Source: Eledone cirrhosa
Taxonomy: Eukaryota
Reading direction: 5' to 3'
Length of the DNA: 64,000 bases
NCBI GenBank assembly: GCA_964016885.1
Contig: OZ024743.1
Location: 268,026,001 to 268,090,000 of the forward strand
The notes under the pieces were generated by a model, which saw only the letters and a list, made by a program, of their open reading frames with translations, was not told the DNA's origin and did not search any database. Each line of letters starts with the position of its first letter. Positions within the stretch are counted from its first letter, which is position 1. This document shows positions 16,604-18,897 of this stretch, one piece after another. Made by a program: the position numbers and the translations under genes.

Positions 16604-18768
16604 TATGATAATAATGGAGCTGCGGCGTTGCAAATGGGATACATATGAAAAAGTGAGTCCTTCATCAGTGACCCTCCAACCGTCCTCGGCATTTCATCGC
16701 TTTAAGGGCCATATGCCTCAGGTTGGTGCGAACAACGGCTAAAAAAAGTCGTTGGGACACGTAAACAAAGGGGGACGCTAGAGTAACAACAAAAAAGTTT
16801 AAGCAACGGAAAGTGAGTAGAAATAGACAAGTCCCAGATCTCTATGAATATAAACTCTGTGAAATCGTGAACAAGAGACGAAAGACCATCAAACCTGGTT
16901 GAAATGTGAGCAAGGAAAGAATTTCGCCCAAGTTTGACGGGGGGGAAAAAGAGAGAGAGAGAAAGGAGAGAAGAAGAAGAAGAAGAAGAAGAAGAAGAAG
17001 AAGAAGAAGAAGAAGAAGAAGAAGAAGAAGAAGAAGAAGAAGAAGAAGAAGAAGAAGAAGAAGAAGAAGAAGATAAAGGGGTCTGGTCTACGAATTCGGT
17101 AAACGCAAGTTTTGTGAAGTCGCAGACGAAAGAGAGAGAGAAAAAAATTCCATACCAGCTCGGTCAAGACCGCGCGAGAAAAGAATTACACACAGGTCAA
17201 ACTTGAAGGAGGAGGAGGAAAGAGGAGGAGGAGAGGTAGTGACAGAGAATGAGTGAGTGAAAGTTGAGGAGAGAGTAACAGAGAGGGAGACTGCTAGAAG
17301 TGGTAAAGATACAAGGAACGAAACAGACGAAGGCAGCATGGAAAAAATATATGTGTAAATATGATAATAATGGAGCTGCGGCGTTGCAAATAGGATACAT
17401 ATGAAAAAGTGAGTCCTTCGTCAGTGACCCTCCAACCGTCCTCGGCATTTCATCGCTTTAAGGGCCATATGCCTCAGGTTGGTGCGAACAACGGCTAAAA
17501 AAAGTCGTTGGGACACGTAAACAAAGGGGGACGCTAGAGTAACAACAAAAAAGTTTAAGCAACGGAAAGTGAGTAGAAATAGACAAGTCCCAGATCTCTA
17601 TGAATATAAACTCTGTGAAATCGTGAACAAGAGACGAAAGACCATCAAACCTGGTTGAAATGTGAGCAAGGAAAGAATTTCGCCCAAGTTTGACGGGGGG
17701 AAAAAAAGAGAGAGAGAGAAAGGAGAGAAGAAGAAGAAGAAGAAGAAGAAGAAGAAGAAGAAGAAGAAGAAGAAGAAGAAGAAGAAGAAGAAGAAGAAGA
17801 AGAAGAAGAAGATAAAGGGGTCTGGTCTACGAATTCGGTAAACGCAAGTTTTGTGAAGTCGCAGACGAAAGAGAGAGAGAACAAAATTCCATACCAGCTC
17901 GGTCAAGACCGCGCGAGAAAAGAATTACACACAGGTCAAACTTGAAGGCGGAGGAGGAAAGAGGAGGAGGAGAGGTAGTGACAGAGAATGAGGGAGTGAA
18001 AGTTGAGGAGAGGGTAACAGAGAGGGAGACTGCTAGAAGTGGTAAAGATACAAGGAACGAAACAGACGAAGGCAGCATGGAAAAAAAATATGTGTAAATA
18101 TGATAATAATGGAGCTGCGGCGTTGCAAATGGGATACATATGAAAAAGTGAGTCCTTCATCAGTGACCCTCCAACCGTCCTCGGCATTTCATCGCTTTAA
18201 GGGCCATATGCCTCAGGTTGGTGCGAACAACGGCTAAAAAAAGTCGTTGGGACACGTAAACAAAGGGGGACGCTAGAGTAACAACAAAATAGTTTAAGCA
18301 ACGGAAAGTGAGTAGAAATAGACAAGTCCCAGATCTATATGAATATAAACTCTGTGAAATCGTGAACAAGAGACGAAAGACCATCAAACCTGGTTGAAAT
18401 GTGAGCAAGGAAAGAATTTCGCCCAAGTTTGACGGGGGGGAAAAAGAGAGAGAGAGAAAGGAGAGAAGAAGAAGAAGAAGAAGAAGAAGAAGAAGAAGAA
18501 GAAGAAGAAGAAGAAGAAGAAGAAGAAGAAGAAGAAGAAGAAGAAGAAGAAGAAGAAGAAGATAAAGGGGTCTGGTCTACGAATTCGGTAAACGCAAGTT
18601 TTGTGAAGTCGCAGACGAAAGAGAGAGAGAAAAAAATTCCATACCAGCCCGGTCAAGACCGCGCGAGAAAAGAATTACACACAGGTCAAACTTGAAGGAG
18701 GAGGAGGAAAGAGGAGGAGGAGAGGTAGTGACAGAGAATGAGGGAGTGAAAGTTGAGGAGAGGGTAAC
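16604..18768 (-). mobile_element. Non-coding tandem element of ~2.9 units (periods 756 and 739 bp), PLE pseudo-LTR or retrozyme-like
   Basis: Near-identical units, each with an internal (AAG)n tract of variable length. The CTGANGA motif lies on the minus strand at 16662-16668, 17418-17424 and 18157-18163. No credible ORF; (TA)n lies at the left end. Confidence 0.85.
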
Positions 18769-18897
18769 CTTTGTTTACGTGTCCCAACGACTTTTTTTAG
18801 CCGTTGTTCGCACCAACCTGAGGCATATGGCCCTTAAAGCGCTGAAATGCCGAGGACGGTTGGAGGGTCACTGATGAAGGACTCAGTTTTTCATATA
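18769..18897 (+). mobile_element. Inverted partial copy of the tandem unit, fused to its 5' end
   Basis: Reverse complement of roughly 16643-16770; ends at ...tttttcatat running into (TA)n. Partial-tandem plus inverted-terminal-copy architecture is typical of PLE insertions. Confidence 0.9.
18813..18883 (+). ncRNA. Candidate non-circularly permuted hammerhead-like ribozyme (also 16656-16726, 17412-17482, 18151-18221 on the minus strand)
   Basis: CCAACC-uga-GGCAU-A-UGGCCCU-uaaagcgcu-GAAA-UGCC-gaggac-GGUUGG-AGGGUCA-CUGAUGA-AGGACU. Stem I is 7 bp, stem III 5 bp, the outer helix 6 bp, and the cleavage triplet is AUA. Helices covary with 48447-48516. Confidence 0.6.

Follow-up and report, generated by a model that had tools for sequence, protein, structure and literature searches.

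The short array of non-coding units near the first quarter of the window (the whole analysed stretch of DNA, 64,000 nt) raises the question of what kind of element multiplies in this form and whether the motif that recurs once in each unit is a ribozyme. The array itself is of an ordinary known kind, a tandem non-autonomous derivative of Penelope-like elements (PLEs). Altogether, we regard it as likely that the locus is a young insertion of a high-copy non-coding repeat, probably a non-autonomous Penelope-like retroelement of Naiad ancestry, with a predicted self-cleaving permuted hammerhead in every unit.

The array and its family in the genome

The array comprised two full units, a 5'-truncated third unit and an inverted arm, with (TA)n on either side (Table 1). 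Unit anchors at 16607, 17363 and 18102 gave periods of 756 and 739 bp. The three units were 96.4–98.4% identical with the (AAG)n tracts counted in, and these tracts (35, 29 and 33 repeats) accounted for most of the difference in unit length. The inverted arm, 97.7% identical, was joined head to head at 18768/18769 with an overlap of about 1 base. No plausible coding frame was found among the frames scanned in the array, the longest stop-free one (153 aa) being mostly microsatellite-derived poly-Ser. The sequence-only reading of this locus, which had described near-identical tandem units with these periods, an inverted piece fused at this junction, (TA)n on both flanks and no ORF, was borne out in all these respects. 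It had also named an assembly artefact as a danger to the triplication. Private substitutions were present in unit 2, in unit 3 and in the inverted arm, unit 1 was distinct from units 2 and 3, and a contig of another study crossed the boundary between two units, differing in 3 letters and 7 gap letters. This makes a simple assembly duplication unlikely.

Searches of the 3.0 Gb animal genome, presumably of an octopod to judge by its repeats, revealed copies in their thousands, scattered over many contigs. With the first 353 bases as query, 2,018 first-look candidates were obtained, the 40 scored being 98–100% identical; the diverged copy at 47858–48534 gave 1,965. Exact matches to two motif patterns numbered 8,270 and 5,191, with 0 for the reversed controls, and the unit length of the subfamilies ranged from ~490 to 810 bp. 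The units were non-coding head-to-tail repeats with one predicted ribozyme motif each. Among the tallied loci, 20 of 29 held tandem copies and 12 of 29 an inverted arm, so the tandem form, which the sequence-only reading needed to recur elsewhere, does so. Across the family the 5' ends were variable and the 3' ends fixed: out of 137 motif copies, 44 ended at the proximal CAUAU, 24 at the distal one, 62 ran into the next unit and 7 ended otherwise. The inverted arms at three loci (L005, L007 and L038) carried the private variants of the direct arms, which argues that both arms came from one source. In the longest array, of ~30 units (L031–L033, G000:C2:54546482-54567807), eight variants were common to units and a three-unit block was repeated; the recurrence of this variant block points to local duplication. 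These data, together with the low divergence within and between arrays, support the earlier view of a young tandem non-autonomous element with one predicted-ribozyme motif per unit, in the minus-strand sense, and with Penelope-like termini.

Table 1. Coordinates of the array, of the predicted ribozyme and of related elements (window positions unless a locus is given)
Feature	Position	Strand	Remark
Unit 1, 3'-most full unit	16604..17359	-	756 bp; ends at distal 3' site
Unit 2, full	17360..18098	-	739 bp
Unit 3, 5'-truncated	18099..18768	-	670 bp
Inverted arm	18769..18896	+	ends at proximal 3' site
(AAG)35 tract	16969..17073	+	equivalents 17726-17812, 18464-18562
Left (TA)n flank	16555..16606	no strand	
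Right (TA)n-rich flank	18893..19156	no strand	
Proximal 3' end site CAUAU	16643..16647	-	19 nt past core
Distal 3' end site CAUAU	16603..16607	-	40 nt beyond proximal site ('tail')
Predicted permuted hammerhead, unit 1	16657..16758	-	
Unit 1 motif, upstream strands	a3' 16758-16755; hairpin b 16754-16733; c5' 16731-16728	-	
Unit 1 motif, cleavage side	IIIb5' 16726-16721; IIIa5' 16717-16713; H17 16712; I5' 16711-16705	-	
Unit 1 motif, GAAA strand	c3' 16700-16697; U11.1 16696; GAAA 16695-16692; IIIa3' 16692-16688	-	
Unit 1 motif, CUGAUGA strand	IIIb3' 16681-16676; I3' 16675-16669; CUGAUGA 16668-16662; A10.1 16661; a5' 16660-16657	-	
Kink-turn-like internal loop, stem III	16682..16720; strands 16720-16718, 16687-16682	-	3-nt loop and tandem G.A/A.G
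Predicted cleavage site, unit 1	16711..16712	-	after AUA; by analogy with the hammerhead core
Motif copy, unit 2	17413..17514	-	N7 = C; predicted cut 17468/17467
Motif copy, unit 3	18152..18253	-	predicted cut 18207/18206
Motif copy, inverted arm	18781..18882	+	predicted cut 18827/18828
Diverged second subfamily copy	47858..48534	+	70-76% identical, ~500-bp period
Motif copies in diverged subfamily copy	47906-48026, 48410-48527		
Old Naiad-type remnants	L339-L366		N-terminal GIY-YIG, DKA motif, RT; all broken
Young Poseidon-type PLE	L129 (G000:C1:437199000-437208999), L130, L131		tandem, 3,531-bp period, intact 784-aa RT/GIY-YIG frames

The predicted permuted hammerhead

The Rfam hammerhead models gave no match in the array because the motif is not of type I, II or III. 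The parts of a hammerhead core were nonetheless complete on the minus strand (CUGANGA, GAAA and an NUH with A15.1–U16.1, their invariance being partly imposed by the search patterns), in the non-circular order cleavage strand, GAAA strand, CUGAUGA strand. The cut predicted from this structure falls at 16712/16711, the very site that the sequence-only reading had proposed. No continuous stem II was present beside A9 and G12. The bases after CUGAUGA paired with those before GAAA in the first pair only; the GGAC following the core paired with an upstream GUCC (helix a), the GCGA preceding GAAA paired with an upstream UCGC (helix c), and hairpin b followed helix a. With each of its halves paired to the upstream strand, stem II itself is reduced to one A-U or G-U pair resting on a four-way junction. 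We infer a fold in which the split stem II is splinted by this upstream strand. Nine aligned rows lacked even a single base between b and c, which makes the junction perfect. In the inverted arm, helix c loses one of its pairs through a sequence change.

The two helices of stem III are separated by a 3-nt loop and then tandem G.A/A.G pairs, an arrangement that agrees with the kink-turn consensus. The four GA columns were invariant in 22/22 rows, and the loop columns varied. Such a kink-turn would bend stem III and let the outer helix join stems I and II.

The fold was examined in 22 rows picked to span the subfamilies, which represent a handful of related subfamilies. Out of 748 cells 96.4% were paired, against 29–50% in slid controls, and 11 of the 34 pairs showed both-sided changes (three in b, one in c, two in IIIb, one in IIIa and four in I), so that five of the seven helices were represented, among them stem I with 4/7 and stem III with 1/5 pairs. 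Helix a was invariant and hence showed no covariation, and stem II proper was the single A-U or G-U pair. In the shuffle control of the double-change pair count, the figure for these rows was 19/500. The larger set of 79 rows (76 of the 85 distinct copies and 3 window references) was 96.0% paired, with both-sided changes in 7 pairs and a double-change pair count not above the shuffles (425/500). H17 varied only from A to C and N7 only from U to C; a Fisher test on core invariance was set aside, since the search patterns impose most core positions. In the window, a structure descriptor found nothing but the six family copies, and it had no match in 36 PLE loci, and among pattern matches in metagenomes stems I and III were formed in 0/92. 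Minimum-energy folding of the motif (z −0.6 to −1.2) was uninformative because pseudoknots are outside its scope.

Several other interpretations were tried and rejected. A canonical type I, II or III hammerhead within or across units failed, as there was no Rfam match and GAAA did not come after the partner strand of the bases behind CUGAUGA. Comparison by eye with the consensus likewise led to the rejection of HDV-like, twister and pistol ribozymes. The idea of stem II as a mismatched helix and that of the U-rich tail as the partner of the IIIb 3' strand were both dropped after helices a, b and c had been found.

The nearest described relative is the type-SGC hammerhead, reported from metatranscriptomes and metagenomes by Eckert et al. 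2023 (PMC10085705), the consulted sections of which give a known organism only for one weak GCS case and cleavage of 0.007–0.19 per minute. The array motif is like type SGC in its block order S-G-C (cleavage strand, GAAA strand, CUGANGA strand), in having only a short linker between stem I and the stem II side, and in the extra helix, directly connected to stem III, that bridges stems I and II at their outer ends, with IIIb as the counterpart. It differs in that block C is broken, the partner of the GAAA-side strand lying upstream and being reached via the four-way junction; the same sections assume that stem II follows CUGANGA unbroken. Pair 10.1–11.1 is A-U or G-U in our family, whereas the published search patterns demand G-C. 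Finally, the array motif has a kink-turn-like element at the very joint whose geometry those sections leave open, the direct link of the extra helix to stem III being left unplaced there; a kink-turn would be a concrete answer to this puzzle. The hammerhead itself is known and cleavage is predicted here, and it is the wiring that would be new. The literature covered, which took in few of the subscription journals and little of the 2023 and 2026 supplements, yielded no report of an animal retroelement whose hammerhead is non-circular, bears a kink-turn or has a four-way junction.

Relation to retrozymes and Penelope-like elements

Animal non-LTR retrozymes carry type I hammerheads by definition, according to the parts consulted of Cervera and de la Pena 2020 (PMC7229834) and Li et al. 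2026 (bioRxiv 10.64898/2026.07.22.740005). Our family resembles them in its non-coding tandem units with one hammerhead each (here a predicted one), in a GC content under 50% and in being a presumed parasite of PLEs. It is unlike them in its predicted ribozyme, which is not of type I (no Rfam match, non-circular strand order), and in its inverted arms and two fixed 3' ends, both of which are PLE traits. The earlier retrozyme reading thus finds no support in the hammerhead type. Nor does the impression hold that the unit was longer than those of known animal retrozymes: published units span 51–972 bp in Li et al. 2026, as far as consulted, so ~750 bp is not unusual.

For EN+ PLEs, the consulted part of Craig et al. 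2021 (PMC8557442) describes partial tandems, an inverted 5'-truncated copy, a 30–40 bp tail and microsatellite targets, with a (TA)n bias in Naiads. Partial tandems, 5' truncation and an inverted 5' copy all occurred in our family, and its two 3' end sites, 40 nt apart, ran into (TA)n. Hence it is Naiad-like in its (TA)n bias, partial tandems, inverted 5'-truncated copy and 30–40 bp tail. Unlike Naiads, it is non-coding and had no detected sequence in common with the Naiad remnants of the same genome, and its copies are about 99% identical, whereas Naiads are described in that source as long dead in cephalopods. The source further states that Naiads are without canonical hammerheads, eight of them having half a core with the other half 35–50 nt away, a fact that its consulted part leaves unexplained. 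In the Naiad consensus FASTA of its supplement, we read by eye the a-b-c-III-I layout at 7/35 places and the kink-turn-like loop in both octopus Naiad records. Five further Naiad 3' ends, in records that are the nematode ones judging by position, appeared by eye to have a C-S-G order and a full stem II, so Naiads may in general have the cyclic order reversed. The family also parallels Chlamys elements such as MRC1, presented there as non-autonomous PLE derivatives whose 3' sequence is common to an autonomous family, in its multicopy head-to-tail insertions, but differs in that no autonomous family with a matching 3' sequence was found.

A search for an autonomous PLE with the same terminal motif, as the sequence-only reading had advised, yielded none among 36 Poseidon/Neptune-type and 25 Naiad remnant loci, the lone match to the unit in the latter being an ordinary family copy (in L344). 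The Poseidon- and Neptune-type elements checked had no sequence in common with the family. A degenerate motif search of the genome led to one Naiad-type remnant, and there were 0 matches to a motif derived from the octopus Naiad end as published. Naiad-type DNA copies were 68–82% identical to the query. No intact Naiad was found among 115 protein matches, all of them fragments with a longest open frame of 254 aa, and the 3' ends of the remnants had no match to the ribozyme model. The ancestry of the family looks Naiad-like, and a diverged Naiad may have been missed by the single query.

The best 30 of 150 GIY-YIG matches were C-terminal-endonuclease PLEs. Pfam left the Naiad and Poseidon proteins unnamed, and these labels derive from the order of the domains and from resemblance to the supplement sequences. 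The RT beside the long array, at first impression a Naiad, proved to be of Poseidon type. The young Poseidon-type family had two fixed ends in (TA)n, as in the family under study, and a type I-like hammerhead of its own, recognized by eye. The core of the latter appears to begin with U instead of C. Fold-back pieces of the Poseidon-type terminal repeat lay in (TA)n of the window at 9473–9677, 39688–39812 and 47717–47830; such pieces were noted in 57/211 family loci, with two fixed end sites ~83 nt apart and starts near a hairpin. Two Neptune-type copies (L132 and L133) had open frames of 1,096 and 938 aa.

Cleavage, origin and rival explanations

A trace of cleavage might be expected in the 5' ends of the insertions. 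Among 107 5'-most arms collected by core-pattern search, 17 started 28–47 nt upstream of CUGAUGA, the predicted cut being at 43, and the following 20-nt bins held 2, 2, 3, 5 and 2 arms; counted as independent insertions, there were 14 in the 28–47 nt bin versus 2.6 expected. One locus (L239) consisted of two arms, each starting at the predicted cut, placed head to head between (TA)n flanks. Arms at L071 and L006 also started at the predicted cut, and that at L097 ~30 nt upstream of CUGAUGA, within the same bin. A 3'-anchored control used 80 5' ends less 10 chance matches in an unrelated GIY-YIG frame, that is 70 arms, and its bins from −12 upward held 2, 7, 7, 2, 1, 0, 6 and 4. Since the bins 8–27 and 28–47 hold 7 each, the excess spans the whole core and drops just upstream of the cut. 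In the unrelated Poseidon-type family the 5' ends cluster at a hairpin and not at its own cut, hence RT stalling can mimic cut-site ends. The enrichment at and just 3' of the predicted cut would fit cleavage, with RT stalling probably explaining part of it. Caution about cleavage is also advised by Li et al. 2026 (bioRxiv 10.64898/2026.07.22.740005), in the consulted part of which cleavage was found in 1/9 predicted retrozyme dimers and not in the other 8.

For a non-autonomous Penelope-like element of Naiad ancestry, the reading that we prefer, the following cycle can be proposed. A read-through minus-strand RNA would be cut in part. A Penelope-type RT/GIY-YIG enzyme, for which the young Poseidon-type family is the visible candidate, would nick (TA)n and, at the two CAUAU sites, prime on both strands. 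Tandem arms would come from RNA that was uncut or re-ligated, and short arms ending at the cut from cut RNA; the two cDNAs would be joined head to head, and some long arrays would later be enlarged by local duplication.

The sequence-only reading had favoured a rolling-circle retrozyme, in which 739–756 nt monomers are excised and ligated to circles and the arrays arise by reverse transcription round one circle. We consider this explanation possible but rather unlikely. It accounts well for one motif per unit, for seamless head-to-tail repeats, for 3' ends that are internal to the monomer, and for a haplotype usually common to the units of one insertion (divergence of 0.33% within arrays versus 1.17% between arrays); the monomer folds better than its shuffles (z −4.55, 20 shuffles), and circular RNA is established for the type I retrozymes of coral, mussel and axolotl. 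However, two variants set units 2 and 3 apart from unit 1; one of them is private, and the other is polymorphic throughout the family (across 11 and 16 arrays). One circle therefore cannot give this array without later conversion or duplication, and the proposed copying from a single circle needs extra events. Another array (L034) mixes variants known from other arrays, the repeated variant block in the ~30-unit array reflects local duplication, and the remaining features are explained just as well by read-through RNA of a homogeneous array. A circle may thus have been involved, and it is not the favoured origin at this locus. Much the least probable explanation, in our judgement a very remote one, is a satellite-type repeat spread by DNA recombination, or an assembly artefact. 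The higher-order duplication in the longest array is of this kind, but the thousands of copies scattered over many contigs, the 3' ends that are fixed while the 5' ends vary, and the inverted arms speak against it, as do the substitutions that distinguish the units and the junction present in another study's contig.

Another explanation concerns the fold itself, which might be kept as a structure for recognition or priming by the RT and no longer cleave, the 5' ends piling up by RT stalling. The position of the fold, 19–59 nt from both 3' ends, agrees with this, multi-unit arrays require uncut or re-ligated RNA, the 5'-end excess spans the entire core, and most retrozyme dimers assayed in the consulted part of Li et al. 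2026 were inactive. On the other hand, H17 stays inside the NUH rule, the density of 5' ends falls just upstream of the cut, arms of L239, L071 and L006 start at the cut itself, and type-SGC and CSG hammerheads, which have this strand order, cleave in vitro according to the sections consulted of PMC10085705. Loss of cleavage seems unlikely to us.

The preferred Penelope-like origin can be extended to a bolder proposal, which we hold tentatively and would not call probable. Its hammerhead would have a connectivity beyond the six proposed permutations, with block C split, resealed by a four-way junction and closed by a kink-turn; it would cleave in vivo and represent the missing ribozyme of Naiads, retained on a non-coding parasite that survived when its Naiad parent died out and that another Penelope clade now moves. 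If this were true, the best-studied ribozyme would have a natural wiring that is invisible to current descriptors, with >13,000 motif copies in one animal genome, the statement that Naiads lack a ribozyme would be overturned, and the purpose of Penelope hammerheads would be reopened. The young arrays, with two fixed 3' ends and with 5' ends near the cut, would provide a testable record of Penelope-type integration.

Other features of the window were noted in passing. At 46585–46635 (+) there is a minimal hammerhead core in canonical order, with CUGAUGA, a 4-bp stem II, GAAAC and GUC, in which stem I is not evident; the AGGAC after this core is the same as in the scrambled motif of the array. 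At ~21390–21480 (-), a different repeat family has a type I-like hammerhead whose stem III is an AT palindrome; relatives occur in L033, L042, L053 and L060. A broken frame at ~15950–16150 (+) resembles the C-terminal endonuclease end of a non-LTR retrotransposon. The stretch 40716–44395 is taken up by very long arrays of (TGG)n and (GAT)n, which have a strong G skew, and a tRNA-like head, possibly of a SINE, was recognized by eye at ~48940–49010 (+).
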